38,872 nt of DNA from Rhodospirillales bacterium (GCA_038143065.1 JAYQLI010000007.1:1-38872), one strand, 5' to 3'; shown: positions 13,818 through 34,151, counted from the stretch's first letter. Notes: a model not told the origin generated them from the sequence alone. Made by a program: numbers and translations.

Positions 13818-13829
13818 TTGCTTCTAAAA

Positions 13830-13899
13830 TGGTGCCCGGGGGCGGATTTGAACCACCGACACGAGGATTTTCAGTCCACTGCTCTACCCCTGAGCTACC
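13830..13899 (-). pseudogene. 5'-truncated tRNA-Phe(GAA) copy, likely an att-site duplication
   Basis: Reverse complement GGTAGCTCAGGGGTAGAGCAGTGGACTGAAAATCCTCGTGTCGGTGGTTCAAATCCGCCCCCGGGCACCA has D, anticodon (GAA) and T arms plus CCA, but lacks the first ~5 nt of the acceptor stem (GCCCG); integrase starts 68 nt away. Confidence 0.85.
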
Positions 13900-13938
13900 T
13901 CATTAAATCATATACTTAGCTTAATTGACAAAGCCCTT

Positions 13939-15639: not shown

Positions 15640-16064
15640 CTAAAATGTTGCTAAGTTAGCCATAGTCTTTTTTTCGAGCTTCTCAGACAGTGCCGTAGTG
15701 ATCTCATCTTCAGATCTTTCTACCTCAGGCACTTCCTTGGGCTTGAACAAACCCAAGTTCTTACCCAGCAGCTCGATGGCCTTTAGCTTTGCTGATACGG
15801 GGCCTTCACCAAAAGCCACTGCTTCGAGCTCTTTCAATATTCTCTTCTCGTGAGAGCGCCTGTATGCGCTGTCTGTGGGCCTTTTCTGCCTCCAGCTCGA
15901 TTATCCTTGCAGCCACCTTGGGGTGCCTCCTGAGCCGCGAGGATTCCTCCCAGACAGTCTTTGGCGCCATATTATGAGAACTGTAGGCAGATCTGTAAGC
16001 CTTGGTCTGCGAAAGACCATCAGACACTTGTTGTGCAAACTCCATTCTGCTTCGCTGTGATCAT
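15640..16064 (-). CDS. Terminase small subunit (HTH-type), frameshifted
   Basis: MITAKQ.EFAQQV.DGLSQTKAYRSAY..NM..KTVWEESSRL..HPKVAARI.EL, then AKLKAIELLGKNLGLF; characteristic TerS pattern. Confidence 0.72.
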
Positions 16065-16073
16065 ACTCTTAAC

Positions 16074-17772
16074 CTAGTTGCAGTACGTATAATTACCCAT
16101 GGTATTGCAGAACACGCCGCCATTTAAACCGCCAGTTGATGGTGCTGGAAATGAGGGTGTCTGCAATAGGCCTTGGCCTAGATTTAATAGCATATTTGAT
16201 TGGTTTTGTCTTCTTTGCTGCTCATAAGATAAGCACTGCAAATATTCCTGCGTACCCGGTGAAAACCCATTACTCACGCATTTCTTACCATCACGAGAAA
16301 GGTTGGCAGTTGATACCGGTTTCTGCTGAACGACTTTCTTTTTTACAGTCGCAAAACGGCTTGGCACCTCCACCTTCGCAATAAGACTTGGATAGATCGC
16401 TGAAGGAAGAGTTATGTCGCGCTCATTAGAAACATAATTGACCAGTGCTCTGTTAGTGCCCTTGCCCCACAAGCCATCAACTGAACTGCCGTAATATCCT
16501 AGCTGCTTAAGCGCATATTGGATCTGCTTTCTTTCAGTTAGGCTCTGGCTGACAAAATACGCTCTAAGTTCTGACGAGGTCGGTTCTACCCTTGTGGGCT
16601 TTTGTACCTGCTGTGTTTTTACCTTTGGCGCCACTGGCATAACTGCTCCACAGTCCACGTAACGGCTTTGTATGCAGCTCAAAGCCATCGTCCGGGCTTT
16701 TTCCACTGCCGCAGGGAGTCATTGACTGCTGAATAGCTTTACGGCGCTCAGGAGCCTCCCATTGCCGTTCAACGCGGATATATTGAACTACATATGGGCT
16801 AGTGTTGGATATCCAGAGCACCCAGACCTTCCTCATACATCTTACCCAAATAAAATTGAGCGTCAGCGTTTCCACAACAGCGAGAACCTGACTTAATTCA
16901 AAAGCTGTATTGTACTTACCAGACCCGAAAGCGACGGGTTGCAGCAGCAATTCCTTCAAGCACACCACATTCAAGCCCACGGGTTTTTTGCAGCACCTAT
17001 ATGCGCTCTAAACTTGGGATTATTTTGCCATTGCACAACACCACTGTCCGCTTTGGTAGCTAGAGCACAAATCTCATCATCTCGACATGCGGTTGGGTTA
17101 GAAGAACAACTGACAGGCTCTTTGATCTCCGCCACGTTGCATGAATAGCCCTTCTTCTTGGCAGCATCAGCGAAGGAATTTGTGTCCCATTGAAGTTGGC
17201 CATTGACCGATTGAGTTGCGTTAGAACAAAGCTGCGCTGCAATATGACGTGGAAGTAGTATATGAACATTCTGCTTCAAGATTATTTTTGCGCTCCAAAA
17301 CTGCATTCAATAAAGCTTCTACGTTCTCTTTCTTTTTCAAGTCAGCGGCTGAAAAATGCGCCTTATTGAATTGTCCTAAGGCTGTTGAAGTTCTTTTCCC
17401 ATAAAGGCCATCAACTTTTGAGGTATAGAGGCCTTTTCCTTCAAAACCTCTTGAACTAATTTTCGATCCTCTTTGGTTAACGTAATGAATGCTGTCCTCA
17501 AAGGTGTAGGTTTAACGGCACCAACGCCACAAGTTAAACCTCTACGTTTTGCTTCTTGAACAAATCTTTGCCAATAACCATCGCTCCACTTTTTCCCAAT
17601 TGCCCACGTCTCCGTAGCATAAGAGCAGACTGCGGAAGCCGTGCATTTGCGCAGCGAAAATTGTGGGTCTTCATGGTCACAAATCTTAGCGCCATAGCTT
17701 GGTGAAGAGATTATTGCAGATCCTACAAATACAGCCCCGCAGTAACTATGCAAAATACAAGTTTTCTTCATG
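16074..17772 (-). CDS. Large exported protein with Cys-containing repeats and two peptidoglycan-binding (PG_binding_1-like) domains, frameshifted
   Basis: Signal-like N-terminus; repeats C..AT...W.....EAKRRGLTCGV / AAKKKGYSCNV; PG-binding motifs RKLVQEVLKEK..DGLYGK and RKQIQYALKQLGYYGSSVDGLWGKGT. Confidence 0.6.
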
Positions 17773-17917
17773 AAGAAACTAAAACAAAATCCAGCTTTTT
17801 GTGGAGGCAATTTTTAGCGGCGCCGTCATTAAACGGCGCCCCAAATTTAAGCTACCTCTCGAACAGAATAACTGACGCCCACATTTTCAGCCTGTACCAG
17901 CTTAATAGCCAAACTTA

Positions 17918-18255
17918 TCAGACTAATGACTTGATGGTGTTCTGTTTCTGAGCGTCATTAAACAATCCAACATTACGATAGTCTGAGAACAAGCCCAGCG
18001 CAGAGCGGAGGAACCAAAATGGCTCTTGCAACTCACCGCGCACCAAGGTCGCCCCTGACGTAATTAGGTTGGTCAGATACATGCTCTGCAGGAACCTCGA
18101 ACACAGGCATACCAGCGGCATAGAGTGCACCATTGATGCAATAGGCATCCTTTGCGCAAATATACCTTACACCACCGCTTAGGGTCTCTGAGGATCTCCA
18201 GAGCGCCCTGTAAGTGGCGCTCTGTGACGGTGTTATTTGGGAGGAAGTGTATCAT
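17918..18255 (-). CDS. Small phage-like hypothetical protein (DUF6197-like), frameshifted
   Basis: LQGALEILRDPKRW..., YCINGALYAAG pattern across frames; family call is tentative. Confidence 0.35.
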
Positions 18256-18445
18256 TTGTATTTCCTTTCTGCTTGGATCCGTATGAAGGGTTTATTGGTC
18301 TGGGCAGTGTTGGGGTTGGGTACGGTTTCCATAACCTCTTGCCCTTGCTCAGGGCGTTTAGCTTGTTGAGATGTATCTCAGCAGTGCTCACGCCAAAGCC
18401 ACGCGTCCTCATAGAGGAGCGGCGTTTATGTTGATTTTCAGTCAT
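18233..18445 (-). CDS. Small basic phage-like hypothetical protein
   Basis: RBS GGAGA, ORF of about 70 aa (RTRGFGVS..LNKLNAL.KGK) overlapping the next gene. Confidence 0.45.
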   Translation of the reverse strand: MTENQHKRRSSMRTRGFGVSTAEIHLNKLNALSKGKRLWKPYPTPTLPRPINPSYGSKQKGNTNDTLPPK

Positions 18446-18637
18446 GATTTTTCTCCATCAGAGCAAGACTAGAGATGCCATGAAATGGCGATCTCGCTTG
18501 CAGCTAATGGAGTTCAGATAAATGTGCTGTTTACATCTATTACAGTTCTTCGATACACCAATTACAGAAAATTTACAAGCCAACGCGGACTAGTTTTTAA
18601 AAACACACCAGTGTGAGAATTTGAGCTTAAGATTAAC

Positions 18638-19238
18638 TTAGCATGTCCAATAAATCTCAATTCTTATCGGCGTTGGATTATAACCATTGCAGGGATTATG
18701 CATCTGAGGGCAGTTGGACAGCACAGCCAAAGTGTCTGTCTTGGCCAGCAGTGTTACATAGCTCTTTGGTTTAAGAGTTACATTATCGACGCCAGCGGAT
18801 CCATCTTCCAAAACAGGAACCGACATAAACCAATTTATATTGGGAACTATAGCCTCTTTACCCATCCCGTTTTTTGATAAGCTCAGCCTGAAAGTTATCG
18901 TAGCAGGACTCCGTCGTTTCAACGCCATATCTGAGCTTGTTGTTAGGATTGCTGCAGCAGCCATAAATAGTGTCATGCCGCCCAATAGTGTCTTCCACCA
19001 CCTCAAGTAACTGGGTGCCACTATCAGAGTACAATACACTGCCTAATCCTACATAGACATTACCCTGAACTTTAACCGTGTTAGTAGCTGAATATCGATC
19101 TGAGCGATCAACATTATTATAGCAGAGAAAGTCTACGGCTTGTTGACCTTCAAGGTCAGTTATCTTCAGGCGTTGGCCCTCTTTTACAACTCCTGACCAT
19201 GAAGTTTTAGCTGCGACCTCTTCTTCGTAAATACCCAA
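18638..19238 (-). CDS. DUF1989 / urea-carboxylase-associated family protein (frameshift near 18860)
   Basis: ITDLEGQQAVDF, GRHDTIYGCCS, SCYDNF, NINWFMSVPV, SNCPQMHNPCNGYNPTP; RBS AAGGAG. Confidence 0.88.
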
Positions 19239-19407
19239 ATTTTCACTCCTTCTATCTCTTAATTCAGGGATATCAGATTTTCAAAATAGAACCACATCTA
19301 GGGCCCATTTGTTCATGCATAGTTTTACATAAAGCCCTACAAAATCTAGGGAGTGGCCCTAGGGATGGCGCTACTTTATCTAACAGCAAGCGATAACAGA
19401 GTTCGCT

Positions 19408-19860
19408 TTATAATTCACGTTCTGAAAGAGATAATATAACTTTTTCAATTCTTTCCATGACAGCTGCTTCCTCAAAACGCTCTGAAATGCATCCATTATC
19501 TGAAAGCCAGTTGAGCTTTGAATTGGTGAAAATTTCAATGTCGGGTTCATGCTTCGTGCTATCATCAAGAGTTCCAATAGGAATAATGGCTAACCCTTCA
19601 ATAACCTCAACACTGTAGAAGGCTTTCGTGGAGCAGTTAGGACAAAAAAATAGCTCAATATCTCCTCCGCTCCCTCCGTTGTAGGTATATTTTTTTAAGT
19701 CACCGGAAACTTCGATTTCTTCTTGCGAAAAAATACCCGTTACGGACAAAACGCTGTATAGTTTCCTGCAACTTGTACAATTACATTGGTTAATAAGCAT
19801 TGGGGCATAATTCGATTTAATTTCGATACTGCCACAATGGCATGAACCAATTTTCTTCAT
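19408..19860 (-). CDS. GFA family (CENP-V/GFA) zinc protein
   Basis: GSCHCG, CNCTSCRK and FCPNC motifs. Confidence 0.9.
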   Translation of the reverse strand: MKKIGSCHCGSIEIKSNYAPMLINQCNCTSCRKLYSVLSVTGIFSQEEIEVSGDLKKYTYNGGSGGDIELFFCPNCSTKAFYSVEVIEGLAIIPIGTLDDSTKHEPDIEIFTNSKLNWLSDNGCISERFEEAAVMERIEKVILSLSEREL

Positions 19861-19932
19861 TTTATATCTCCAAAACCGCTATCTGCTTAGGGATTGTAAT
19901 CAGCAGTACAATGAGTTTGGTGCGCATAAGGT

Positions 19933-20307
19933 TTATTCCCATTTATCACCTTCAGCAGGGTACTGACGCATAATTTCATCGGAGGCCCGATAAGCTGACA
20001 CAAATTGGTGCATCTCGCTGACCCTGGAATTAACCACTGTGCCTTCAAGTTCAAAGGCATTCAGTTGCTGATAAACATCATCTTCACTTTCAGCAATCCA
20101 GTGACAGTAAAAGAAGTCATCGTTTCCACACCAAGTCTGCATACATTGAGCGTGTTCGCCAATCGCTTCTACTGCCCACTGCAATTCTGACTTTTGTGGT
20201 TGGGGCGGATTACGTTTTTCAGGCGGCGTTAAATATTCTTGACGCGCCTCATCAGATACAAATGAGTGGATAACAAAAAAATGTTTAGAAAAGCGTTCCT
20301 TGAGCAT
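19933..20307 (-). CDS. Small hypothetical protein, probable dimeric alpha+beta barrel (DUF4242-like)
   Basis: Clean 124-aa ORF; FFVIH...QTW....FFYCHWIAESEDDV pattern. Confidence 0.6.
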   Translation of the reverse strand: MLKERFSKHFFVIHSFVSDEARQEYLTPPEKRNPPQPQKSELQWAVEAIGEHAQCMQTWCGNDDFFYCHWIAESEDDVYQQLNAFELEGTVVNSRVSEMHQFVSAYRASDEIMRQYPAEGDKWE

Positions 20308-20451
20308 ATTTCAACCTTCATTTTGTTTGCTTGTGATGAGCCCGTTTAGATATTTTTAGAATTTTTTTAAGCCCCCGTGAACTTAACCTTATAAGTTGTG
20401 GAGGCTCTTTTCGTTCCAAATCCAAATGCAAAATGCGTAGATTTTTACTAG

Positions 20452-20766
20452 CTAATGTTTCATGTGAGCGTCTGGATAATTGGTAAAATATTCTTCTGAT
20501 ATTGGTGTCATTACGCCGCTTTCAATTACGGCACCGCCTTGCCTTCTAATTTCAGTCAACTCTGCATCAGAACCAAAGGCTTGAAGCACTTCCATGCTAG
20601 GAAACATCATAATTGCATGAAGTTGAGTAGGATCATTCTTCTCAGTACCAGCAAACAGAAACTTAATTCCCATTTCTTTAATTCTGTCTTCTTGTGACTT
20701 TACCATCGCTTGCCAAGTATCAAAACCTTTTGAAAGTTTTATTGAACTTTTCACTATAATTGCCAT
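20452..20766 (-). CDS. DUF3764-like dimeric alpha+beta barrel protein
   Basis: RBS GGAGAGG; K.FDTW..M......MGIKFLFAG.EKNDPT...IM.FPS.E.LQAF pattern. Confidence 0.65.
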   Translation of the reverse strand: MAIIVKSSIKLSKGFDTWQAMVKSQEDRIKEMGIKFLFAGTEKNDPTQLHAIMMFPSMEVLQAFGSDAELTEIRRQGGAVIESGVMTPISEEYFTNYPDAHMKH

Positions 20767-20886
20767 TTCCCTCTCCGATCGGCCAAACGTAATTAGTTTT
20801 GAAGGCTGGTCAGGCGAAAAGCAATCATAACGTGGCGTTATCGATGCTTTGTATCATATTCAGAATAATACTTATGAGTACGCCGC

Positions 20887-21204
20887 TCATTTGGTAAGTT
20901 GGTTTTCTTCTTCTATAATATTTGTGCCAAATTGAATGAGCATATCGCCTTCCAAGACCACGGTATCTTTTAAATGCTTGCTAAAAATATCTGTCTGCAG
21001 TCCTTTTTTACGTATCTCATGTCCAGCCAAACGCGCTTTTTCATTTTGATAAACAGTTATGCCCACACCGCTAGCTACACCCGTTTTCACGAAAACAGTC
21101 TGCTCAGTGTTTGGATACGGCCCATGAGCCTGCCAAGCAGCCACAAATGCTTCCAGACTATCAGCGCTGTTAAATTCAAACATCATTATATTGGAGACTT
21201 TCAT
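20887..21204 (-). CDS. Small hypothetical protein, probable ferredoxin-like/dimeric alpha+beta barrel
   Basis: ORF with FVKTG...GITVYQNE..R..G....LEGD pattern similar to 23238-23522. Confidence 0.55.
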   Translation of the reverse strand: MKVSNIMMFEFNSADSLEAFVAAWQAHGPYPNTEQTVFVKTGVASGVGITVYQNEKARLAGHEIRKKGLQTDIFSKHLKDTVVLEGDMLIQFGTNIIEEENQLTK

Positions 21205-21270
21205 CGGATCCAAAGCTCCAATTGTTTTAAAAATTTTACATTCAATTCTATTGACATGTTTAGCACGAGG

Positions 21271-21564
21271 TTAGTTCTGCCCAGTTATGTATGACGGCTC
21301 CTGCTCAACAAAAGCCGTGTAAGGGCGCGTATGTCCCTCCTCTGGTGAATACTCTTCTAACATATATCTATGATCATCAAGCCAATCTTAAGCTTCCGAT
21401 TGCTGCTCAGCCAACTTTTCAACGCTTGGCTGCAACCAAATTTCAATGACTTCATCATCGCGAGTAAGTATGTAGCTTTCTGGGGAACTCTTTTTTAGCG
21501 CCTCTACATACTGTTCGAAATATTCTGGTTTTGGCTTGAAATAAACCATTGTCATGGTCTTCAT
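21271..21564 (-). CDS. Small hypothetical protein (ABM-like), frameshift near 21388
   Basis: RBS AGGAG; MKTMTMVYFKPKPEYFEQYVEALK...; continuation DWLDDHRYMLEEYSPEEGHTRPYTAFV. Confidence 0.6.
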
Positions 21565-22079
21565 TAAAAGGCTCCTATGATTTGCCTCAGAATAACGCGC
21601 TGTGGCGATATGTGGAGTCATTGTTTGAACACTTGCGCGCGCCTGTGTTTGTATTGCGCCAATACCTGCCATGTGGGGTGTTCCACAGGTGGAACTAATC
21701 CCAATTATGTATGAGCATTCCGCCTATTTTCTGCTGGTATCAACCTTAATTGTACAATTTAGAGTAACTCAATGCGCAGCGTTTTTCACGAGGTCCTTGA
21801 ATAAAAATTAAGCAGATCGCCAGAATTTTAATTTGTTACGTTAGGTGACATTTTTTGTGACGTCAGGTAACACTTTGCCATTCAAATGGGTGTACCAACT
21901 GTAGGATGAGACATGAACCGACCAGTTACTGTTTCATCGGCCGGCTTTCACCAATGTTTGGGGAAGCCGGTCTTCCTTTAAAAAGCGCGCGCCCTTCATA
22001 TATTGTAGTTAGCAACTGGCTGGCCTTCCCTATAGGACAGTCATTTTTACTATAGTACCCTAGCCCCCTGCCTGCGTCG

Positions 22080-22178
22080 CAAGCGTAATTAGCTTAATCG
22101 ACTGTGCAACCTGAGCAACTTCAGGAATTAAGCAGTAATATGCTCAATAAACGCCCCGCTTATTTCACCGCGTATCAT
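22080..22178 (-). pseudogene. Terminase large subunit 5' remnant, copy 1
   Basis: Manual translation MIRGEISGAFIEH(fs)YCLIPEVAQVAQSIKLI, homologous to the copies at 23058 and 23597. Confidence 0.7.
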
Positions 22179-22215
22179 TTGTATGCTAACCTCTCAGCCA
22201 AAAAAGGAGAAATTA

Positions 22216-22478
22216 ATGTTTGCCACATTTACTGATTGGACTTTGATGAACCAAAAACATTTGCTGAAAGCGCGGAAGAGTTGTGGCCAAGCATGAAAGA
22301 GGCTGGCGCAGTGAATATGCGAATTGTTCAAACAAGCGATAAGGGTGTGCGCACTATGACTATGTGGCCAGATGCTGAAATGCGCTAATGGCTATTCAGG
22401 CAATTTCAACAGTGGGCACTTCCTCAAATTGAAGCGGTGGGAGGCGCTAAAGGCGCTGTTTTAGCGGAGTTTAATTAA
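22216..22478 (+). CDS. Cassette 1: small hypothetical protein (about 87 aa, probable alpha+beta barrel), missed by the ORF track because of indels
   Basis: RBS AAGGAG; MFATFTDW..DEPKTFAESAEELWPSMKEAGAVNMRIVQTSDKGVRTMTMWPDAE...GAKGAVLAEFN*. Confidence 0.6.
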
Positions 22479-22540
22479 ACTGCTTAGCGATCAGCTTATT
22501 AACGCTAAAGACCTTTAAAGCCGCGCTAGCCTCTCTTTGC
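22471..22540 (-). pseudogene. Terminase small subunit 3' remnant, copy 1
   Basis: EASAALKVFSVNKLIAKQFN*, aligning to the C-terminus of the terS pseudogene at 24577-25045. Confidence 0.65.
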
Positions 22541-22591
22541 ACCATAATCATTTATGTTCTACCTTCACGAAAGAAACAAGGGAAGCAAGTA

Positions 22592-22978
22592 ATGGCTGAA
22601 CTAAACGCACACTCTGACCGCATGGTCCTAGTATTTAATTGTAAAGTTAAAAACGCCGATGATTTCAAGGCTTGGTCTAAAGATCGGGCGGCAAAATATG
22701 TTTACGAATGTAACGAAGAAAACACTATAAGTTATGAATGGCACATTTCTAATAACGGATCTGAAGCAACTCTTATAGAAACTTTTATAGACAGCGACAG
22801 CATGATGGTGCGCCTTGGAAACCACGGGGCCAGTCCAATTGCAGCTGAAGTTATGGAGCAAGTCGAAATAACCGGCGTTCTATGTTTAGGCAATGCCAAG
22901 CAAGATGCCAGAGATGCTCTGTCCGCTTGGGGTGCAATCTTCCATGCACACCATGCTGGCTTTCATAAAAGTAATTAA
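22592..22978 (+). CDS. Cassette 2: antibiotic-biosynthesis-monooxygenase-like (ABM) protein
   Basis: E..TISYEWHIS.....LIETFIDSDSM..RL pattern; clean 128-aa ORF. Confidence 0.7.
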   Translation: MAELNAHSDRMVLVFNCKVKNADDFKAWSKDRAAKYVYECNEENTISYEWHISNNGSEATLIETFIDSDSMMVRLGNHGASPIAAEVMEQVEITGVLCLGNAKQDARDALSAWGAIFHAHHAGFHKSN

Positions 22979-22987
22979 GCAGCTTAT

Positions 22988-23058
22988 TTAACGAATGGGA
23001 TGAGCGATCAGCCCATCAACACCAACACCCCTTTAAGCCGCTCTAGACTCAACCTTAG
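22988..23058 (-). pseudogene. Terminase small subunit 3' remnant, copy 2
   Basis: AKVESRA.(fs)KGVGVDGLIAHPIR*. Confidence 0.7.
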
Positions 23059-23160
23059 CCATGCGGGTAATCAATCACATACAGAATGAACATGCGATAA
23101 TCCTTCATAAGCTTGATTGGTTGCCCAGCCTGAGCTTTTTCTTAAATTAAACAATAATGT
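23058..23160 (-). pseudogene. Terminase large subunit 5' remnant, copy 2
   Basis: HYCLI*EKAQAGQPIKLMKDYRMFILYVIDYPHG. Confidence 0.7.
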
Positions 23161-23237
23161 TATCTTTCGTGGCGTAATATTTGACAGAAACGGATCACTG
23201 CTTTTCGATGATTGAAGTCATAACTAGGGAGAGAAAA

Positions 23238-23522
23238 ATGTCATACTACACAATTTCGCACTGGGAAGCCGATGAATGGACAGATGAAATGGAAGCAATT
23301 GCTAAAGATAAATTTGGCCCAATGATTATGGCTGTGGGTGCTAGTTCAGTCGATTTTGTTAAAACCGGTGACAATACAATGTGCGTTGTAACCAAGTATA
23401 AAGATGAAGCAACTGGAACGGCTGCTCTGGCAAAGATTGCTGAAATTCGAGGTCAAGCCGCATCAACGCTGCCGGTCAGGATGGTTTCTGACGTTAAAGG
23501 TTCTGCATTCGTAAGTATGTAA
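23238..23522 (+). CDS. Cassette 3: small hypothetical protein (94 aa, probable alpha+beta barrel)
   Basis: RBS GGGAGAG; MSYYTISHW...GASSVDFVKTGD..CVVTKYKD. Confidence 0.7.
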   Translation: MSYYTISHWEADEWTDEMEAIAKDKFGPMIMAVGASSVDFVKTGDNTMCVVTKYKDEATGTAALAKIAEIRGQAASTLPVRMVSDVKGSAFVSM

Positions 23523-23523
23523 T

Positions 23524-23597
23524 TTAATGAGCGGGCTGAGCGATCAGCCCTCAACTCCAACAGCCATTAAAGCCGATCTAGCCTCGCCTCAACAGCG
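23524..23597 (-). pseudogene. Terminase small subunit 3' remnant, copy 3
   Basis: VE.EARSALMAVGVEG(fs)LIAQPAH*. Confidence 0.75.
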
Positions 23598-23804
23598 CTA
23601 GCAGTATGGCGGCGATTATCGCAGACTTGTCGTATTTTCTCGCCACTGACAGATAAGCGCGCCTGGCGCCGTGCGGGTTATCAAAGACATCCAGAATAAA
23701 CTTGCGCTGAAATTTGATCAGATTTGCGGTTGACCAATCTGAGCGCCTTCTGGGATCAGGCTGTAATGCTTAATGAATGCGCATATCTTTTGGCCGCGTG
23801 TCAT
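23597..23804 (-). pseudogene. Terminase large subunit 5' remnant, copy 3 (longest)
   Basis: MTRGQKICAFIKHYSLIPEGAQIGQP(fs)LIKFQRKFILDVFDNPHGARRAYLSVARKYDKSAIIAAILLA; N-terminus of an HK97-like TerL with Walker A RKNGKS decayed to RKYDKS. Confidence 0.82.
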
Positions 23805-23888
23805 AACAATGTCACCTTTCGTTACGTAATCATTGACATGGGCCGTCACCAAATAGTGGGCTAAGGATATCAGAAGAGGGGAAATTAA

Positions 23889-24260
23889 ATGACACCCAAA
23901 GAAGTGGTACAAAAAGGATATGATTGTTTTGCATCAGGCGATATGGAAACTTTCGTCGGACTGTTCCATGAGGATTGCACCGTCACAATAAACGGAATGC
24001 ACAAATTCTCCGGAACCTATAATGGGATAAATGAGTTCATGGGCGTATTAGCATTGATACCATCCCACTATGATAATTTTTCTGTGACCGTGGCGAATAT
24101 GATTTCTGAAGGAGATCAAGTCGCAACTCAACTGGATGCATCTGCTGACGGTATGGAAGCTAAATTTGGGCATTTCCATAGAATTGAAGGAGAAAAAATA
24201 AAGGAGTTTTGGATTTACGATGATAGCCAAAAAATGGCGCATGCAATGAAAGCCGTTTGA
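23889..24260 (+). CDS. Cassette 4a: SnoaL-like / NTF2-family protein
   Basis: VVQKGYDCFASGDME....FHED, SGTYNG, ISEGDQV, HFHRIEGEKIKEF. Confidence 0.85.
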   Translation: MTPKEVVQKGYDCFASGDMETFVGLFHEDCTVTINGMHKFSGTYNGINEFMGVLALIPSHYDNFSVTVANMISEGDQVATQLDASADGMEAKFGHFHRIEGEKIKEFWIYDDSQKMAHAMKAV

Positions 24261-24316
24261 TTTAATTTGTTGGTTGGGCAAACGGCCCAGCCACACCTAT
24301 CTTAAGGAGACATAAG

Positions 24317-24580
24317 ATGAACGTATTTATGCACGGAACAGTAGAAGCTGGTTTTGATGTTCTTAAATCTAAGATTGAAAGCGATATGGCAGGTCCAGCA
24401 GGAAAATTTGTTGATGAATATCGCCTCGCTCATCTTGGTAATGGTGAAATTATGTTTTGCGCACAGGTGAATGATTTTGAAAAGATGGGGACATTCATGA
24501 ATGACCCTGCTGAAGTGCAGTGGGACAAAGACCACGGTTGTGTTTACAAAGTTTATTCAGTCGAAGAAATGCAGGATTAA
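24317..24580 (+). CDS. Cassette 4b: small hypothetical protein (87 aa, probable alpha+beta barrel)
   Basis: RBS AAGGAG; V.DFEKMGTFMNDP....WD..HG...VY pattern. Confidence 0.7.
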   Translation: MNVFMHGTVEAGFDVLKSKIESDMAGPAGKFVDEYRLAHLGNGEIMFCAQVNDFEKMGTFMNDPAEVQWDKDHGCVYKVYSVEEMQD

Positions 24581-25045
24581 TTTACAAGCTGATCGACCAG
24601 TCCCGCAACGCCAACGTCCTTAAGCGCAGCCCGCGCAGCGCCCTCTAAATTAGCCGCTACATGAATCGTGCGCGGATCAGAGGTCGTTTTGTTTATCGAC
24701 ATTGAACGAATTATCATCAACTGACACCGCTTAAGGACATCAATAACTGACAGAAGCGAGTTTGGAATTGGCGTCCCGGGCTTATTAGAACATCATTACC
24801 ATGGCATCCAACTCAATCTGAGCTACCCGGAAGTCCACTTCCATCCTTACAATTTTCGTCAATAAGAACAAGTCCATATCACGCCAATCTGACCTCGCGC
24901 GGGCGCGGGTGAACTAGTGTCAGATTATTAGCTCAACCTCGCTGCGCAGCTCCACTCCAGCAGGCAGTGGGATGAGATCATTGATGGCACCCACAAAGCC
25001 TGCCACCGCAGAGATCGCACCATTTTTGTCAGATCGTTTTTTCAT
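24577..25045 (-). pseudogene. Full-length but decayed terminase small subunit (P27-like, cos/HK97-type module)
   Basis: MKKRSDKN..SAVAGF.GAI..IPLPAGVELRSE.E.II*H*FTRARARSDWRDMDL.LL.KIVRME....GTPIPN.LLSVID.....IRSMS.N.T.SDPRTI..AA.LEGAARAALKDVGVAGLVDQLVN*; in-frame stops; sits downstream of HNH and upstream of terL. Confidence 0.8.
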
Positions 25046-25124
25046 AATTCTGTTACGACCTCTCGTTATGTTCCTATTTATCTTGACTTGCTGTTACTGA
25101 CCCACGTTTTGATCTCATTTAAAG

Positions 25125-25215
25125 CGTGGGTTTTTTTCGTAAACGCAAAAACGTTTTAATGTGAACACCAGTTTCTTGCCCTTGGCTTTTAACTTCTGAC
25201 TCACCCCCCCGACGT
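25125..25215 (-). other. Possible cos-like packaging-site region between HNH and terS
   Basis: G-run GGGGGGGTGAGTCA followed by TTTTTGCGTTTACG in the HNH-terS interval, where HK97-like phages carry cos. Confidence 0.4.
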
Positions 25216-25315
25216 TACGTCAAAAAAATTGTTGTTGAAATCTAGCAGGACGCAGTTTTATTGTTTGTGTAGCCAAACTGTAGGGAACCTTCATTTATTA
25301 GGGAATGGAGGCTCC

Positions 25316-25579
25316 ATGCTTAACACTCATACAGCAAATCTATTTGAACATGTCCTTTGGCACTGCCAAAACGTCTATAAGCTAAATACTCTTCAAGAAG
25401 CTGTAATAGTTGCGAGGCGAGACGGCTTTTTAGACTGGGACAACAAACTAACTCCAATTGGGCGACATGTTGCAGAATTAATGATGCAAGACTTCGAAAA
25501 TTATAAATCGCTCTTTGAAGTTGATGTTAAAAAGCGGCCGGGTTATGTTTACCAACCGGCTATCCATCAGCTCCAATAG
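25316..25579 (+). CDS. Hypothetical protein on the opposite strand between HNH and terS
   Basis: RBS GGAGG then MLNTHT...ARRDGFLDWDNKLTPIGRHVA; its 3' end overlaps the HNH remnant. Confidence 0.55.
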   Translation: MLNTHTANLFEHVLWHCQNVYKLNTLQEAVIVARRDGFLDWDNKLTPIGRHVAELMMQDFENYKSLFEVDVKKRPGYVYQPAIHQLQ

Positions 25580-25880
25580 TCATGTCGTATCCCCACGCTT
25601 CGTCCAATTGGATCGGGCCTGAGTGACAGCGCCAGCAAACTGTTTGTAAGCAATTTAGATCAAAGAACAGTTTTAGATCACCCTCGTGTGGCTTTAATTG
25701 GCTCACCACTGCACTACGTGGGTGAACCCTGCCTGCCTGCAATTGTGCGCCGCAGCCGCTGTGTTGATACTGGTAATCTTCGCATGTGACAGCCTGACGC
25801 CTGAGTGTTGTTCAATGCTTCGTGCTGTAAAGCGAGCGATATGGCTGTGCTTATGCACTCCGATGAGTAATTGATCATAT
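25545..25880 (-). pseudogene. Phage HNH endonuclease (gp74-like), decayed
   Basis: YRSLYSTKH*TTLRRQ...GCGAQLQAGRVHPRSAVVSQLKPHEGDLKLFFDLNCLQTVCWRCHSG.IQ..E..GYD.TIGADG*P; nonsense codons, and the VVHH motif is altered to VVSQ. Confidence 0.78.
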
Positions 25881-25991
25881 TTTAGCCATAACCTAGTTTT
25901 CACTGGTTGAATTTTATGCAGATAAAATGTGCGTTGAAAGTATACCTATGTATTCTTTGACTATGAGCACTGGCGTTATATTTCTCACGGT

Positions 25992-26171
25992 ATGAAACGG
26001 AAAATCTGCTATAAGTGCGAAGCTATATGCAATTCTTTAAGTGAAGATTGCCCAAGTTGTGGAACATTACTGAGTTCCAAAACCTTAGACAATTTTAACT
26101 TAATGCCTTTGATTGTTGCCGTCTGCGCTTCATTCTTGATAATTGGCGCTATGATCGGCGCCACTGCATAA
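25992..26171 (+). CDS. 59-aa zinc-ribbon protein with C-terminal transmembrane helix
   Basis: MKRKICYKCEAICNSLSEDCPSCG...LIVAVCASFLIIGAMIGATA*; two CxxC pairs; below the ORF-track cutoff. Confidence 0.55.
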   Translation: MKRKICYKCEAICNSLSEDCPSCGTLLSSKTLDNFNLMPLIVAVCASFLIIGAMIGATA

Positions 26172-26506
26172 TTAAGCAACTTCGCAAGTTACTACACTTG
26201 ATTGATCAATATACATTTGGTGCACACTCAATGTAACAAGTGCAGGCACTAGGCTAGTGTCACACAGCTGTTATAGTTGAACTTGATATTATGCTTGCGT
26301 GACCGCTTCTCCCGCGGACCAATGGCAGCCAAACATCTTATAAATTCAATCTAATCCAGTTGCCAACTAATTCAGCATTTCTTCATACATGGTTTTATAT
26401 AAAGCCTTTCTCAATATAGGGGTACCCCTGGGGTGGGGGTCTGGTCAAAATGATTTGGTATAATGAGCGATATATTTGAGTTTCAGATAAACTTATCGGC
26501 CTAACG

Positions 26507-26527
26507 GTGAAACCTAAGTGAAACCTA
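26507..26527 (+). repeat. Putative arm-type sites (GTGAAACCTA x2, 11-nt period)
   Basis: Perfect 10-bp direct repeat about 60 nt from the tRNA-Thr att core. Confidence 0.55.
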
Positions 26528-26567
26528 TTTAGGTGATAATATTCCCCATAGAGGCTTTAAAGTCATC

Positions 26568-26580
26568 TAAGTCATTGATT
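26568..26580 (-). promoter_or_regulatory. IHF-binding consensus next to an att site
   Basis: Reverse complement AATCAATGACTTA matches WATCAANNNNTTR. Confidence 0.6.
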
Positions 26581-26584
26581 TTAA

Positions 26585-26637
26585 TGGTGCCCCCACACGG
26601 ACTCGAACCGCGGACCTGTTTGATTACAAATTAGCTG
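26585..26637 (-). pseudogene. 3' fragment of tRNA-Thr(TGT), att-site duplication
   Basis: Reverse complement ..TTTGTAATCA..AGGTCCGCGGTTCGAGTCCGTGTGGGGGCACCA: anticodon loop, T arm, acceptor 3' strand and CCA; no D arm or 5' acceptor strand. Confidence 0.82.
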
Positions 26638-26785
26638 GTCCTAGTGTGCAGCTCATCCTCAAAACAATGTAAGATAAAATTTTTTATGTTTAAAAACAAT
26701 ACATAAATAAATTTATCCTGTGCAATAAGATTGCAAAGCAGAGCAAAGAACTGTATGATTTTTGGAACCCATATGGAACCCACGG

Positions 26786-27954
26786 ATGCCACGCAGAACA
26801 ACATCTCGATTAACAGACGCTTTTGTCAGAAGTCTTAAGCCACGTGAAAAGCGCTATGATGTTTATGATGCACAGCTAGCTGGCTTTGGAATAAGAGTAA
26901 GCCCTTTAGGAACTAAAAGCTGGATAGTGCTTTCAAGAAACCTCCAAAGGAAAACGAGAGTAACACTGGGCCGATACCCTCAAATGCCATTAAATACCGC
27001 CCGGGCAACATGCGCTGGTCATTCTCAACGACATGGCGCAAGGGGAATATAAGCGCACCAATTCATTTGAGCTTTTTTCCGATGCACTTCAGGAATGGTA
27101 TTTAAGGGATCAATCGACCAATAAAAGTTTCGCCCAAGTTGAACAAACAATCGCACTGCATGTTGAACCCTATCTTAAGAACTTCAAGATTAGGGAAATT
27201 GAAAAAGGGATCTTCTTAAAAATTATTGACCGGGTCGGAAGAAAAGCGCCCACACAGGCAAATCGCGTTCTTTCTTTTGTTAAGAGGTTCTTTACATTGG
27301 TGCGTATCCAGAGACCTACTTGACGTATCTCCAGCAAATGGCATTGCAAAGTTTAAGACCGAACAAGGAGAGATCGGGTTCTCTCTCCCATCGAGTTGGA
27401 ACGTGTCTATCAGGCCTGTGACCAATTAGAGTATCCATTTGGTCCACTCTACAAAATCTTGCTTCTGACAGGGCAACGCTTGAATGAAGTTGCTGGCATG
27501 AGTTGGACTGAGGTTGATTTCGATAATGCAATATGGACTATTCCAAGCGAGCGCGCCAAAACAGATCGCCTTCATCTTGTTCATCTAAGCAAACCAGTAT
27601 TGAAAGAGCTAAACGCTCTTTATGAATTCACATCATCAGACTTAGTATTCACAACAACCGGCAGCACACCTGTTAGTGGATTTTCTAAATCAAAACGAAA
27701 ACTGGATCATCTATCAGGTGTAACGAATTGGCGTCTCCATGATTTACGCCGCAGTTTCGCAACTGTAACAACGGAGACACTGGGCTTTGAGCCGCCTGTT
27801 GTCGATCGGATCTAAACCATGAGTGGTAGCGTTCAGGGAATCGCAGCAGTATATCAGCGCGGAGAATATCTCAAAAACGGAAAGAAGTACTGAAGGATGG
27901 GCTAATTACCTCGAGGGTCTGGGACAGTATGGAACCCTTCAGATAGTGTCCTAA
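26786..27954 (+). CDS. P4-like tyrosine integrase with arm-DNA-binding (DUF4102) domain, frameshifted
   Basis: LTDAFVRSLKP..RYDVYD..LAGFGIRVSP.GTKSW..TLGRYP; LLLTGQRLNEV; WRLHDLRRSFAT; GIAAVYQR. Confidence 0.9.
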
Positions 27955-28356: not shown

Positions 28357-29517
28357 ATGTCCGGGGAAGATGATGAAGATTGGGGTTATTCCGGTTACTC
28401 TAAAATCGAATTACGTAACTTTATAAATTGCGATGATAGTATATATGTCTCCAATAATCCTTATAAAGACCGGATAAAAAAAAGAGCCTACATAGTTGAC
28501 GGCCTGATAGAGGTGAATCCATTAATATTTTCTACGGTGATCCTAAAATGGGAAAATCACTCCTTCAGGTTGATTTAGCTTCTAGTCTAACAAGTGGCGG
28601 AAACTGGGCTAATTTAGATACAGCAAACTGCTTAATCCTTTATATGGCTTTTGAAGATCCAGAAGGGATAGAAGACCGCCTCACTCTATCAAGTATAAAA
28701 AAGAGGTTTGTGAAAGAGGGAATTGTTGACCATTTGCTTCCAATTTACAGGCCTCCTGATATCTTTAGTGATAAAGCTATAGCTGCTCTGGAGTTAAGAC
28801 TTCTCGAATACCAAAGATATTTTGATCATCAAATTATTATTATAGATACTTTATCACTTGCTATGGCTAGGGTTGGCGATGAAAATAGTAGTGTAGCCAT
28901 GGGCATAGTCATTGATACATGCCGAAGATTAAGGGATGCGGGTTATACAATATTTATCGTCCACCATACACTGCAAAGATCAACGCAGAGGATTGCGTGG
29001 ACACAAGTCATTACAAGCAGCAGCTGATAGTATCTTTTTAGTAAAAAAGAAGCTCCGCTCATCAATAGTCAATGTTGAAAGAATTGAATATCGAAATGGA
29101 CCAGAGGTGAGAAATTTAATTTTGAGATTAAAACTGACTTTCTTGAGTACGCTCCAAACGAGCCAATTTCTATCTGGAGTTTATTGGTGAGGTTGGTCAG
29201 TCAAAAACAGAGAACAAGCCATCGCACAGGGAAGTAGCTGTGCTGAACCTACTTGGGCAGCTTTTTGAAGCAGATCCAGTGAATATAAAGCTCGTTTTTT
29301 GGGCTAGATAGGGATCGCTATGCCGTACAGTACGCTCAGCTGTTAGCTGCATTCATTGCAGCGAACATCTCTCCTCAAGCAAAAATCCAAAGCTTCTCAA
29401 GCTAAGGCTTTAAAGCGGACCCTCGAAAGTCTTGTTGAAAAAGGTCTAATCAATGAGCGCGATGGGTTTTATTGGCTGCCAGAAAATGAGCAGACGAACG
29501 ATGACAATCAAACCTGA
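28357..29517 (+). CDS. AAA_25 / RepA-like SF4 helicase with probable C-terminal winged helix, frameshifted
   Basis: YIVDGLI, FYGDPKMGKS (Walker A), LYMAFED, IIIIDTL (Walker B), DENS, IVHH..K...RGLRG.SL.AAAD. Confidence 0.82.
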
Positions 29518-29789: not shown

Positions 29790-30100
29790 GACAGTAGCAA
29801 AACATATCTCTGAGTTAGGCCGCCCTACCCGCTTCGGGCCTAATTGGCCGGGAAAAGGTGCTTGGCTAAAACCCGAAAAGGAACCCCATGCCAGCGCCCC
29901 GCTTTCAAACACAATGGCAGGTGCAGTTTGCATGGTGGGCTTTCAACCGGCGCTAAGACAATAGATGGTCTTCAAAAGAATTTCAGAGGCTAATCTTAAA
30001 CATGGCAGGTATACAAAGGATAAGCTGCAAGCCCAGCGCCACGCTGCTGAGGTTGGCCGCAGAGTTTTGGCAGAACTAAAAGAATTGAGCAGTATCTTAC
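29790..30100 (+). CDS. HGGxSTG-domain protein, frameshifted and possibly 3'-truncated
   Basis: Joined frames read RCLAKTRKGTPCQRPAFKHNGRCSLHGGLSTGAKT.DGL.RISEANLKHGRYT. Confidence 0.8.
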
Positions 30101-30164
30101 CACTCTGTCCTTCTAGTTTTGACTCCTGCCGGGAAGGAAAAGAAGACTTAGACTACTCATAGCG

Positions 30165-30315
30165 CTATCCTTTCCACGGTTGGGGTCCCTCTGGAATTAT
30201 TGTATTTTTTCCACGTACGATTGCGCCTTCTGCGTCATACATCGGCAGGCTGCAAATCTGTGCGCTATAGGTATAGCCTTGCGTACCAATCAATTTCACT
30301 TCAGTGCCAGGGCCC
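30165..30315 (-). pseudogene. C-terminal fragment of a GcvT-like aminomethyltransferase
   Basis: PGTEVKLIG.....SAQICSLPMYDAEGAIVRG....P; no upstream part. Confidence 0.45.
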
Positions 30316-30504
30316 GTCTCAGGATCATCCAAGTTGAGACACCGACAAAATAGAGAGCACAGCTGTCTAGCCCCCTATATTTGTCCACTAATTTTTGGTT
30401 TCTCTAATAGGGTTTCTGGGGCTGGCTGTCGATCCCCGGTTTTTTAACGACTTAGCGAAATTGTTCGAGCCCCGCCTGGGAGGAGACGGAGGCCCGACTT
30501 GTTT

Positions 30505-32087
30505 CTATTGAAGAAACAAGGTCGTGATCTGCGGCACTAACAGGATGAGCATCAGAACCATGATCTGGAATTCCAATGAAGGGCAGGAAGCTCTTAAAAA
30601 TGTCAGGCAGAGTAATTTGCGGTGGAGCCACGGATTTCAGGTAGAAAGCCGCCCTCCGAAAGGCGGTGACAGAAAACTCACCTGCATGTTCACGCAAAAC
30701 AACACGCCAAACCAAACTTGAACCGCCAGCTGCGATTCCAGACCGCCGGTCAATCCCAATTCGTCCCAGGGAGTTTGAGAACAATGGGCAGAAAGACCGG
30801 CATGACCAGCAGAACGATCCCGGTCCAATCCATGAAGGCCCCCATGAACAGAAATACCGTCATCATGATCAACAGAACACCGAGCGTAGGCATGTCCAAA
30901 CCGACGATCAGATTTGCCACATAGGTCGGACCACCTGCGATCGTGTAGGCTCCGGCCAGCGCAGTGGCACCTATTGTCACCCAAATAATCGTCCCCGTAG
31001 ATTTAAAAGTTCTCATCGAAGCTTCACGCAAAAGCGTCCAGGAGAACTCCCCTCGGAGAACGATCAATATCAAGACCGCGACCGAACCAATGCCGGCGGC
31101 TTCGGTGATCCCAGTTATTCCGCCATAAATGGAGCCAAGGACCACAAAGACGATCAGCAGCGGAGCAACCATTCCTTTCCCGTTTTGCCAAGCCGCCCGA
31201 GTTCGTTCGCGACCGACGACGAGGGCAAGAAAGGCGAAGAGAGCGATAGAGAGAGCAGCTGATTTGACCATGAAGCCGACTGATATGTAGTTCGTGTCAG
31301 CATCAATCTCGCCAAGGGCATTGAAGAAGATTGCGCGCAAGAGCAATATCAGTGATCCAGCACCAACGATCATGGCGATCAGCGCTTAGGCCATACATTC
31401 GCTTTTTCGCTGCCAGACAGGTCATCTTCGGACGGATCCGGCAACGGTGCCAGATGAGGTTGAATCCGTGTACGGATCAATATGTACGCAATATAGCTAA
31501 ACGCCAGAATGAATCCTGGAACAAACGCCGCTTGAAATAGCGCGTGAATAGATGTGTCGGTGACCAGGCCATAGAAAATCAGAACGATGGACGGCGGGAT
31601 CATCGTGCCCAACGATCCGCTGGCACAGATCGTGCCAATAGCGAGGTTCTGATTGTAGCCAAGTCGCAGCATCTGCGGCAGCGCAATCAGTCCCAAAAGC
31701 ACCACTTCGCCACCGATGATGCCAGACATTGCCGCCATCACAATTGCCATGAGCGCCGCGACCACAGCAACGCCGCCTCGGTACGATCCAGCCACACGTC
31801 AAGAGTCGAGTACATGTCTCGCGCAATGCCGGAGCGTTCCAACAGATTTGCCATGAAAATGAACAAGGGAACCGAGACCAGAACGTAACTTGTCGTGATC
31901 CCGTAAATGCGTTGGATCAGGATATTTAATGGGCCGGTGCCAAATTGGCCGAACAGGAGGTCTGGACCGAATTTCATCACCATGACGACAACGGCCAGGA
32001 AGCCAGAAGCGAAACCTAGGGCATGCCGATTGCAAGCAGCAAGAGCATGCCTGCAAGTAACACGAGCGAAATCGTTCCAATATCCAT
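30505..32087 (-). CDS. dctM: TRAP transporter large permease, frameshifted
   Basis: MDIGTISLVLL..., LVSVPLFIFMANLLERSG, GSLGTMIPPS, LGSIYGGI..TEAA, WFGVLFCVNMQVSFLSPPFG. Confidence 0.9.
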
Positions 32088-32117
32088 TACTGTGCCCTTT
32101 CCTGCCTCAGTTAAAAT

Positions 32118-32793
32118 TTATTCATGCTTGCCGCCGGAAGGGCGGGAATCGTCCATTCCTTGCACGCCGTTTTTTGAATGATCTTTCGCCCAGTCCTCAT
32201 GATTTGCCGCCTCACCAGTTGGGCGTGCGTCGAGATGATCTCTGGCGAGATCTTCAAAAAGGTCTTCGAGATCATCCTCGCCGTAGTGTTTTTCTCCCTG
32301 ATCCGTGTTCCAGTCGTAAATCAGGTTGGAAATCGCCTGGAGCGTCAACAGCGCCATCGTGATAAGGATAAGCGGTTTAATGGTAGCCGGTATCGGTGGA
32401 TTAAACTTCGTACCGAACCGCTCCCAAGTGAGGAGTTTCTCGACGGCTTCACTATACCCCCCAAATTAAAGCACCCGCAAAGATGCATACGCAAAAGGTT
32501 GAGAGGATGTCGAAGAATCGCCGCATCCAAAGCGGCGCAAGATCATAGAGAATGAATATTCGGATATGGCTGCGTTGCTGCATCGAGTAAAGACCGGCCG
32601 TCAGATATACGGCACCCGCAACCCAGAGCGAGGTTTCATTGACCCAAAGCGTTGGTCGCAGGAACATATATCGCAGCACGACCTCCAGAAAAATGATCGA
32701 GACAATGAATGCCGGAAGCCACATCGCAATCCGGCTGATGCCCCAAGTGATTGGATCCAGTGGGCCAGTTTTTTCATGTTCAACCACTATCAA
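32118..32793 (-). CDS. dctQ: TRAP transporter small permease, frameshifted
   Basis: EVVLRYMFLRPTLWVNE, YSMQQRSHIRIFILYD; lies between dctP and dctM. Confidence 0.85.
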
Positions 32794-32840
32794 GGCCTCC
32801 CAGCTTTGTGCGCGACGACCGACTTTCTCGATGGGCGTTT

Positions 32841-32875
32841 TGGATGCCACCGGCCGCGACCGCCGGTGGCATCCA
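32841..32875 (-). terminator. Strong intercistronic hairpin after dctP
   Basis: Perfect 13-bp stem TGGATGCCACCGG / CCGGTGGCATCCA with a 9-nt loop; no clear U-tract on the sense strand, so it may be an mRNA stabiliser. Confidence 0.55.
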
Positions 32876-32899
32876 TATGAAGAACCCGTGTTTTGAGGC

Positions 32900-34087: not shown

Positions 34088-34151
34088 TGATAATTTGTCA
34101 ATGATAATTTTTAGATGGACATGGGAAAGTCCGGCCTGCTATAACGTACCT

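Follow-up and report, generated by a model that had tools for sequence, protein, structure and literature searches.

The stretch of DNA analysed here (hereafter, the window) is a contig of 38,872 nucleotides (nt) from a Rhodospirillales bacterium (GCA_038143065.1, JAYQLI010000007.1:1–38872), corresponding to the whole of contig C7 in an assembly of 52 contigs that totals 4.63 Mb with a GC content of approximately 47%. Positions 22081–25874 hold, on the minus strand, a decayed gene for an HNH endonuclease and a decayed copy of the phage terminase gene terS, followed by four cargo units that stand in place of the second terminase gene, terL. Each unit comprises one or two genes on the plus strand, and the order from terS outward is c4b with c4a, then c3, c2 and c1. 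Between the units lie 3′ tails of terS (roughly 70–80 nt) and 5′ pieces, or heads, of terL (roughly 96–216 nt); the composite spacer of tail, head and leader measures about 130–370 nt. The individual features are listed in Table 1.

The original prediction, made by inspection of the window alone, held that the repeats between the genes are remnants of the C-terminal end of TerS on the minus strand and that a second repeat family encodes the N-terminus of TerL. A profile of the terS tail with 150 positions, made from four intact relatives, was applied with nhmmer and returned three tails with E-values between 4.3e-13 and 3.5e-5. A profile of the terL head applied likewise returned three heads (E 2.9e-59, 5.5e-17 and 3.1e-11). 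The spacers therefore do align to both terminase genes, and the array as a whole, with one or two plus-strand genes between the terminase pieces, is as described, with the corrections that unit 4 is the one with two genes and that c1 is frameshifted in the window. The part of the claim that did not hold is a further trace of terL near 22545, for which no match to the terL profile was found; the terS-tail alignment spans that spot, and the trace is ambiguous at best. Comparison of the terS pseudogene with the intact TerS encoded on contig C12 of the same genome gave two tblastn pieces with 85% and 64.5% amino acid (aa) identity. A 59-aa piece of the unit 3 head matches the PHROG family of terL (phrog_9, E 7e-4) and, by tblastn, the gene annotated as terL in phages 16-3 and HK022. 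The unit 1 tail is part of a match over 355 nt (86.5% identity) between window 22186–22533 and positions 8763–8409 of the related locus L025, in which the equivalent sequence closes a terS that is intact. A long terS match inside the unit 3 terL head proved gappy and spurious, the score of terS against terL being 25 and that of shuffled sequences 24.6 ± 3.9.

Table 1. Features of the array in window coordinates, listed from the terS side outward. Contigs with C numbers belong to the same assembly and those with L numbers are related loci from public collections.
Feature	Position	Strand	Evidence and remarks
HNH endonuclease gene remnant, first gene of the packaging module	25539–25874	-	tblastn against residues 44–153 of the intact C12 HNH, 50% identity; PHROG HNH families, E 8e-5
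terS pseudogene, full length	24577–25069	-	In-frame stops and a frameshift; phrog_5601, E 3e-4; tail profile, E 1.7e-26
Cargo c4b, 87 aa	24317–24580	+	Open reading frame; stop codon overlaps the terS stop codon; 93% aa identity to L025 cassette; no indels relative to C5 copy
Cargo c4a, 123 aa, SnoaL-like (NTF2 fold)	23889–24260	+	Pfam SnoaL_2, E 4.9e-13
c4a leader	23805–23888	+	Divergent; between terL ATG and cargo ATG; TTGACA-like box and ribosome-binding site by eye in leader alignment
Unit 3 terL 5′ head, terL side of J3	23590–23804	-	Profile nt 1–216, E 2.9e-59; one frameshift; 85% nt identity to C12 terL
Unit 3 terS 3′ tail	23524–23593	-	Profile 79–150, E 4.3e-13; abuts c3 stop codon; 89–90% identity to intact terS ends of L022 and L024
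Cargo c3, 94 aa	23238–23522	+	Distant relative of the c1 family; blastp to L025 c1 and c1′ proteins, E 6e-4 and 1.7e-5
c3 leader	23160–23237	+	TTGACA and AGGGAGAG; 95% identity to L029, 88.5% to L022 and C12; 78/78 nt the same in C5
Unit 2 terL 5′ head, terL side of J2	23057–23160	-	Profile nt 36–139, E 5.5e-17
Unit 2 terS 3′ tail	22989–23061	-	E 1.1e-12; J2 overlap GGC at 23058–23060
Cargo c2, 128 aa	22592–22978	+	Pfam: no family; homologue with 74% aa identity in array L203
Unit 1 terS 3′ tail	22473–22544	-	E 3.5e-5; c2 leader joins directly here (J1)
Cargo c1, frameshifted in the window	22216–22464	+	Intact 89-aa open reading frame in C5 copy and L025; intact also in L138
Distal truncated terL 5′ head, end of the array	22081–22178	-	Profile nt 1–96, E 3.1e-11

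The three joins between units (J1–J3) differ from one another. In J3, nt 211 of terL is joined to approximately nt 400 of the 474 nt of terS; in J2, nt 138 of terL is joined to nt 393 of terS with a GGC overlap; and in J1 the c2 leader is joined directly to a terS tail. Microhomology at the window junctions amounts to only 3–4 nt. Because their breakpoints differ, the three junctions appear to be illegitimate joins, derived neither from one duplicated unit nor from a fixed site. The terminase pieces have also diverged from each other, as had been predicted. The terL heads are 57–68% identical among themselves, and each is nearer to intact terL (85%, 77.5% and 71%, falling with distance from terS); the terS tails are 70–79% identical among themselves, and each is nearer to the intact terS of other elements (86–90%). 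The gradient in the heads fits accretion beside terS and does not prove it.

The same arrangement is found outside the window. Contig C5 of the same assembly (positions 15971–23752) carries a second copy of window 18638–26436 at approximately 95% identity, with the same units in the same order, and the metagenome contig L138 contains c1-J1-c2-J2-c3 at 91% identity. Each of J1, J2 and J3 is bridged by Logan contigs of two independent sequencing runs (X1 and X5), and in X1 the array is covered at uniform depth; among the run contigs examined, none spanned the whole array. More broadly, 14 DNA runs from 10 studies, one of them possibly the window's own source, contain 0.64–0.68 of the words sampled from it. 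Contigs from RNA libraries (X15 and X17) overlap c2, c3, c4a and c4b, although such contigs cannot prove transcription, its starts or its ends, and parts that they leave uncovered were given no weight.

The predicted diversity of the cargo is borne out: at least four families without detectable sequence relation are present, and only c1 and c3 are remotely linked by blastp. Searches of Pfam with c1, c2, c3 and c4b returned no family, and the cargos gave only weak, chance-level matches to PHROGs. For c2, a resemblance to ABM proteins is a lead only; in the ESM Atlas, which yielded nothing beyond an ABM lead, that family occurs in 40% and 20% of cluster members. The c1 family is predicted to be a dimeric ferredoxin-like (ABM-like) domain on the strength of an AlphaFold model with a mean local confidence (pLDDT) of 89.5, for which the best Foldseek match is a marine structural-genomics protein (PDB code: 2od4; template-modelling score 0.72).

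Comparison of the C7 and C5 copies separates the cargo from the terminase pieces. Across the four intact cargo genes, 28 of 1308 sites differ, indels are absent and the ratio of non-synonymous to synonymous change (dN/dS) is 0.20 (Fisher p 1.7e-5). In the terL heads 32 of 412 sites differ, and in the terS pseudogene 45 of 469, with indels. These values indicate purifying selection on the cargo, the terminase pieces being mostly decaying scars. Given this selection and the occurrence in 14 runs from 10 studies, the cargo, which consists of ABM-like, SnoaL-like or family-less small proteins, probably matters to the host.

A better-kept version of the locus is present on contig C12 of the same genome, where an HNH gene is followed by terS (174 aa), a gene of 81 aa in inverted orientation, terL (483 aa) and the portal gene; shorter versions lie on C41 and C11. 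Public collections searched with the C12 TerS yielded 80 viral contigs and nine genome loci, the latter bearing the labels Rhodobacteraceae, Paracoccaceae, Alphaproteobacteria and, once, Burkholderiaceae. Seventy-six of these loci, for the most part viral contigs of marine origin, contain both the end of terS and the start of terL. The distance between them, which is approximate as it was taken between alignment ends, is 39–141 nt in 12 of the 76, 255–537 nt in 20 and 932–5741 nt in 44. The gaps contain 129 open reading frames of at least 50 aa that fall into 40 blastp clusters. The commonest cargo is a forward-oriented gene with ParB_N and N6_N4 methyltransferase domains (43 reading frames in one cluster), and more than 20 of the 40 clusters consist of small inverted genes. 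The terS-terL junction is thus a truly variable accessory-gene slot in related phages, as had been proposed.

The phages in question resemble the HK97 group. HNH, TerS, TerL and portal genes occur in the HK97-type order, and PHROG matches are found in the window fragments and are strong in the intact relatives. Distant relatives are ordinary HK97-type phages, L076 for example encoding both a major head protein and a head protease. In L025, a close relative, the genes are those for integrase, primase-helicase, HNH, TerS (intact, E 1e-18), TerL (intact, E 3e-129), portal and endolysin, and no capsid gene was found in the 16.4 kb examined of its 24.1 kb; more distant relatives have both protease and capsid genes. 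Integrase, primase-replicase, packaging and capsid genes in the absence of tail genes, within approximately 10–15 kb, are the hallmarks of capsid-forming phage satellites such as the phage-inducible chromosomal islands. We found no close cultured phage: TerL is 54–56% identical to that of 16-3 and HK022, and the best TerS match is 36%. Gene order is that of the HK97/HK022-type packaging module, but in 16-3 and HK022 the terL match begins at about nt 540 of the record, directly after terS, so that there is no cargo slot.

The slot has a compact and recurrent architecture. Inverted cargo genes stop 0–11 nt from the terS stop codon, and on the opposite side a leader of approximately 85 nt separates the ATG of terL from that of the cargo. 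This leader is 88–95% identical among the c3 unit of the window, C12, L022 and L029, which have differing genes behind it, and the homology runs out just past ATGTCA. The cargo start sits behind this conserved leader, which faces away from the start of terL. Read by eye, the leader holds a perfect TTGACA hexamer resembling a -35 box, a weak -10 and a ribosome-binding site (AGGGAGAG); the c3 and c4a units each have a leader of their own, a putative promoter, in which a TTGACA or TTGACA-like box can be made out together with a ribosome-binding site. We infer from these features that the leader functions as a promoter.

Cassettes are stacked, as had been proposed, and their position differs between loci. 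In L025 the order is intact terS, c1 (93% aa identity), a terS-tail scar, c4b (93% aa identity), a c1 paralogue and terL; a second segment, window 24263–24619, is 90.8% identical to L025 9132–8776. Thus c1 is adjacent to the intact terS in L025 and most distal in the window, and c4b shows the reverse.

The J2 junction was followed across loci with a scan for an 18-nt core in which the junction letters were held fixed, and which therefore detects J2-type joins only. Among 103 loci returned, five metagenome contigs (L138, L144, L177, L178 and L203) carry J2, which is also present on C11, and the breakpoints are the same in all copies. The cargo on either side differs: c3 with c2 (C7, C5 and L138), Y with c1′ (C11), Y with Z (L178), a 127-aa membrane protein with Z (L177), Z with c1′ (L178, L144 and L177), and a c2-like gene with a SnoaL gene (L203). 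J2 recurs by descent in six cargo contexts and four array types. L177 and L178 are 98.8% identical across two spacers and two cassettes and diverge where the next cargo starts; the breaks in homology coincide with spacer edges. The original prediction had cast the terminase fragments as homology arms or recombination sites. The reuse of the J2 spacer with six cargo pairs, together with the reordering in L025 and the differing cassette numbers given below, provides the strongest support for homology arms; nothing points to a site-specific or dedicated system.

Turnover also continued in elements already defective by then. In L013, L144 and L203 terL is cut short at the same place (nt 88) and gives way to shared DNA, and these loci carry approximately zero, at least three and at least four cassettes, respectively; given one truncation and differing cassette numbers, turnover went on after terL was lost. 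The two distal terL truncations, that of the window (22081–22096) and that of L144 (1500–1510), L203 and L013 (790–800), are no more than approximately 6 nt apart, near terL nt 88–96, and unrelated DNA follows each.

Scars of the same kind are found in L014, L020, L025, L050, L086, L056 and C11. They take the form of terL heads in L014 and L056, of junctions between a terL head and a terS tail in L020 and C11, and, in L025, of a terS tail between two cassettes in an element whose own terminase genes are both undamaged. Three viral contigs, L050, L086 and L056, likewise have scars between intact terS and terL. Stacking, which the original prediction placed in the chromosome, is thus upheld as a process but is not limited to the chromosome. 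In L050 (1745–2322) and L086 (1924–1974) a copy of the terS tail is followed by a second, truncated methyltransferase 5′ end; the slot of both contigs holds the ParB-methyltransferase gene, giving an additive scar of the same kind with forward-oriented cargo. This scar was identified by tblastn with the tail of another locus, and local alignments of L038 and L050 with their own tails gave nothing convincing.

Taken together, these results make it probable that a phage accessory slot has turned into a homology-driven cassette array that works without a dedicated integrase, and that window 22081–25874 corresponds to the packaging end (HNH-terS-terL′) of an element, either a temperate phage of HK97 type or something satellite-like, that has become defective. 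The junction of terS and terL serves as the slot, holding small genes inverted relative to the terminase genes. Because the slot is so compact, adding cargo without replacing any would require a join between the 5′ part of one partner's terL and the 3′ part of another's terS, which is the form that the junctions take, and at least three such illegitimate joins at the level of microhomology (J1, J2 and J3) would have built the array of the window. The resulting composite spacer would be homologous to the terS end and terL start of related phages, and to other spacers, and RecA or phage recombinases could then, through ordinary homologous recombination, replace, duplicate, delete and reorder cassettes, a turnover that went on even once terL was gone. 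Selection acts on the cargo, and the terminase pieces are mostly scars. Nothing in the sequences points to dedicated recombination machinery.

Several observations weigh against this account. No recombination event was directly observed; we infer the pathway, and the direction of exchange between phage and chromosome, from comparison of sequences. The C5 copy may lie in the same cell as C7 or may come from another strain; contamination of the assembly is scored at 5.5%. The related loci are not independent, as several viral contigs are near-duplicates (for example L031–L037) and L144, L177 and L178 overlap. The other 98 of the 103 loci in the J2 scan are chance matches, and the scan is blind to other junctions. 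Close comparison is thin: a DNA search of a sample of 60 related genomes did not find the array, the matches being a terS-like segment (G024) and a 28-nt chance match (G055), and any DNA match at all was seen in none of nine genomes of the same genus and one of 27 others of the same family. Consensus scans for promoters and terminators across 21800–25300 gave counts not above those of shuffled sequences and did not call the leader promoter. Lastly, the terS side of the spacers behaves unlike a simple scar. Its tails differ between C7 and C5 at only 4 of 207 sites, approximately fourfold better conserved than the terL heads (p 0.003), and may be more than scars, acting perhaps as a hot spot for recombination or as an element with a 3′ function. 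Its breakpoints in six distinct junctions fall 56–80 nt before the stop codon, within a 25-nt stretch (profile positions 70–94 of 150), a clustering that would not be predicted from random illegitimate joins and that also counts against the account, except insofar as short repeats survive better and still shorter ones escape detection; it too may mark a hot spot.

A bolder form of the same idea is conceivable, though we regard it as doubtful. The composite spacer could be a self-propagating capture module, making the array an integrase-free, homology-driven analogue of the integron in defective marine prophages. Genes would be taken from the slot of each infecting related phage, expressed each by its own resident leader, shuffled between arrays and handed back to phages, and the conserved terS tail, instead of being a scar, would have a function as a 3′ element; that all of these hold together is a tentative proposition.

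Among mechanisms that differ from the homology-driven array, insertion of whole phages survives best, although we judge it unlikely. A single crossover in terS would bring in a phage, a later deletion would run from its terL 5′ end to the resident terS 3′ end, and repetition of the process would stack cassettes on the terS-proximal side. The gradient of terL-head identity is what would result if new units entered beside terS, and the short microhomology of the junctions suits such deletions; recombination between temperate phages and defective prophages is moreover documented (PMC3945230). However, no full phage flanked by two terS copies was found in the genome, in which tblastn found one full-length terL, on C12. 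The scars between intact terS and terL in L025, L050 and L086 and the reuse of the J2 junction would also be left unexplained, and the gradient may instead reflect different donor lineages.

The clustering of the six terS-side breakpoints and the strong conservation of the terS tails would acquire a direct explanation if a recombinase acted at a site in the tail or the junction, as in a dedicated, integron-like system, and the loss of cargo homology within a few nt of the ATG would fit as well. Such a system is nevertheless improbable here. The terL-side breakpoints are scattered, from approximately 0 to nt 216, and the clustering on the terS side lies at the lower limit of scar detection, as survivorship predicts. 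Neither folding nor symmetry supports a site: the four spacers gave z-scores of 0.81, -2.29, -0.89 and 0.26, not better than shuffled sequences in three of four, 16 aligned terS tails yielded no consensus pairs, and no inverted repeats were found inside the spacers. A hairpin, GGGCTGAGCGATCAGCCC, is confined to a close group, and is not significant. Structured recombination sites resembling attC are rejected, given the spacer folds and the consensus fold of the 16 tails. The only tyrosine recombinase nearby (26762–27815) is frameshifted across three frames and of P4/phage type, as judged from its domain families (Arm-DNA-bind_3, Phage_int_M and Phage_integrase). No recombinase is common to the arrays examined, and L178 has an insertion-sequence transposase instead.

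Tandem duplication of one terS′-cargo-terL′ unit in situ, followed by divergence and without input from other phages, has little to recommend it. It draws on the star-like divergence of the heads, whose pairwise identities of 57–68% are near the values obtained by multiplying together the identities that two heads show to intact terL, as would fit independent decay from a single ancestor, and on the J2-type spacers present twice in the arrays of L178 and L144, from which it is clear that spacers can be duplicated. However, the cargos come from at least four families without detectable sequence relation, apart from a distant c1/c3 relationship, the three junctions of the window have different breakpoints, the tails are nearer to foreign intact terS than to sister tails, and the same cassettes occur singly or reordered in other elements. 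An assembly artefact, in which separate terS-cargo-terL loci were collapsed or chained at shared repeats, can scarcely be entertained: the genome does hold several similar loci (C5, C11, C12 and C41) and graph contigs do break at the repeated leader and tail, but the order of units is repeated in C5 and, in part, in L138, the junctions are bridged by X1 and X5 contigs, and depth is even in X1.

Integron cassette arrays consist of small, mostly single-gene cassettes in tandem, separated by repeated spacers, assembled by the integrase IntI at attC sites and expressed from a common promoter, Pc. The homology-driven array proposed here is alike in its tandem small cassettes, in the variation of their number and order among relatives, and in small-protein cargo with ABM-like and SnoaL-like folds. 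It differs in that there is no IntI nearby, no attC-type folded site, and a leader for each cassette rather than a single Pc; its spacers are 130–370 nt of former coding sequence, and its recombination appears to be homology-driven. It lacks the defining features of an integron and yet resembles one in outcome. The earlier description of the array as integron-like without attC or IntI is in agreement with these findings, the nearby integrase being of P4/phage type and the spacers lacking folded sites. Defective prophages in general are reportedly the theme of a review on 'grounded prophages' (PMC6379469).

Cargo between the two terminase genes is itself not new. It is reported in a subfamily of gut prophages (preprint 10.64898/2026.05.11.724261), and Burkholderia phage CSP3 has 15 open reading frames between terS and terL, an arrangement termed unusual (PMC10269572); the relevant passages of both sources describe no duplication of the flanking genes. 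The slot also resembles the moron hot spots of phages in its fixed position between core genes with content that differs among close relatives, but differs from them in being an array with duplicated pieces of both flanking genes that turns over in a defective chromosomal remnant. Morons have a promoter and a terminator of their own and are expressed independently of the late operon; on this point the slot shows inverted cargo and a conserved leader, with consensus scans at the level of shuffled sequences. Similar in mechanism are the PeSLs of T4-type phages, short repeated non-coding modules that flank non-essential reading frames and are proposed to bring about the insertion, deletion and replacement of these by homologous recombination between the repeats, without an integrase (PMC2839356; modular shuffling also in PMC4122927); mini-circles are also reported for PeSLs. 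As with PeSLs, repeated modules lie beside open reading frames and replacements are bounded by the spacer, J2 with its six cargo pairs being the example. PeSLs, however, combine a promoter with a stem-loop terminator in lytic myoviruses, whereas the modules here are terS/terL scars plus a leader in a temperate or defective element, with no stem-loop supported. Defective prophages are also described as swapping segments with incoming relatives through divergence-tolerant homology (PMC3945230); the products described there are replacement mosaics and not cumulative stacks with composite scars. The claim that no named system has this architecture thus needs qualification, terS-terL cargo having been noted in other phages, but searches of the literature found no description of an array of this kind. 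What seems to be undescribed is the cumulative array itself, with spacers that combine scars of the two essential genes on either side and are reused across loci.

Phage accessory genes are a main route to new bacterial traits, and their accumulation has mostly been inferred from single insertions. The array preserves the intermediates, namely the slot between essential packaging genes and the scars left by the addition of a second, third and fourth gene, and one scar module is reused with six gene pairs across several marine populations. It follows that dead prophages could keep collecting and exchanging cargo by means of leftover homology, which would provide a simple route to integron-like gene arrays in the absence of an integrase.

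Beyond the array, four small genes lie on the minus strand at 19933–21672 in the order m4, m3 (DUF3764), m2 and m1. Genes resembling m4 are found between HNH and terS in C12, L022, L026, L028 and L029, and genes resembling m3 and m2 between terL and portal in L016, L024 and L025. In these relatives they are always inverted with respect to the phage genes, whereas in the window m1–m4 run with the terminase remnants. L144 carries m2–m4 at 96–98% aa identity beside a different array. On the other side, a fragment of a replication-type gene with an AAA_25 domain (28548–29027, plus strand) accompanies the P4-type integrase at 26762–27815, and both are probably part of this same element or of a degraded one next to it.

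Segment 26585–26633 (minus strand) resembles the 3′ end of a tRNA by eye; ARAGORN and Rfam (26300–26900) gave no confirmation, and the genome holds no second copy. A partial tRNA at 13839–13899 was detected by Rfam (43.8 bits), ARAGORN reporting no tRNA, and the segment that includes it (13674–13900) is repeated at 78–98% identity on approximately ten other contigs, possibly as remnants of island attachment sites. The flanks of the window (1–9000 and 30000–38872) have a GC content of 50–65%, compared with 40–47% in the island and approximately 47% in the genome. Short repeats at 9001–9428 and 30360–30425 occur on several contigs and resemble the ends of insertion sequences, and the contig is a mosaic.

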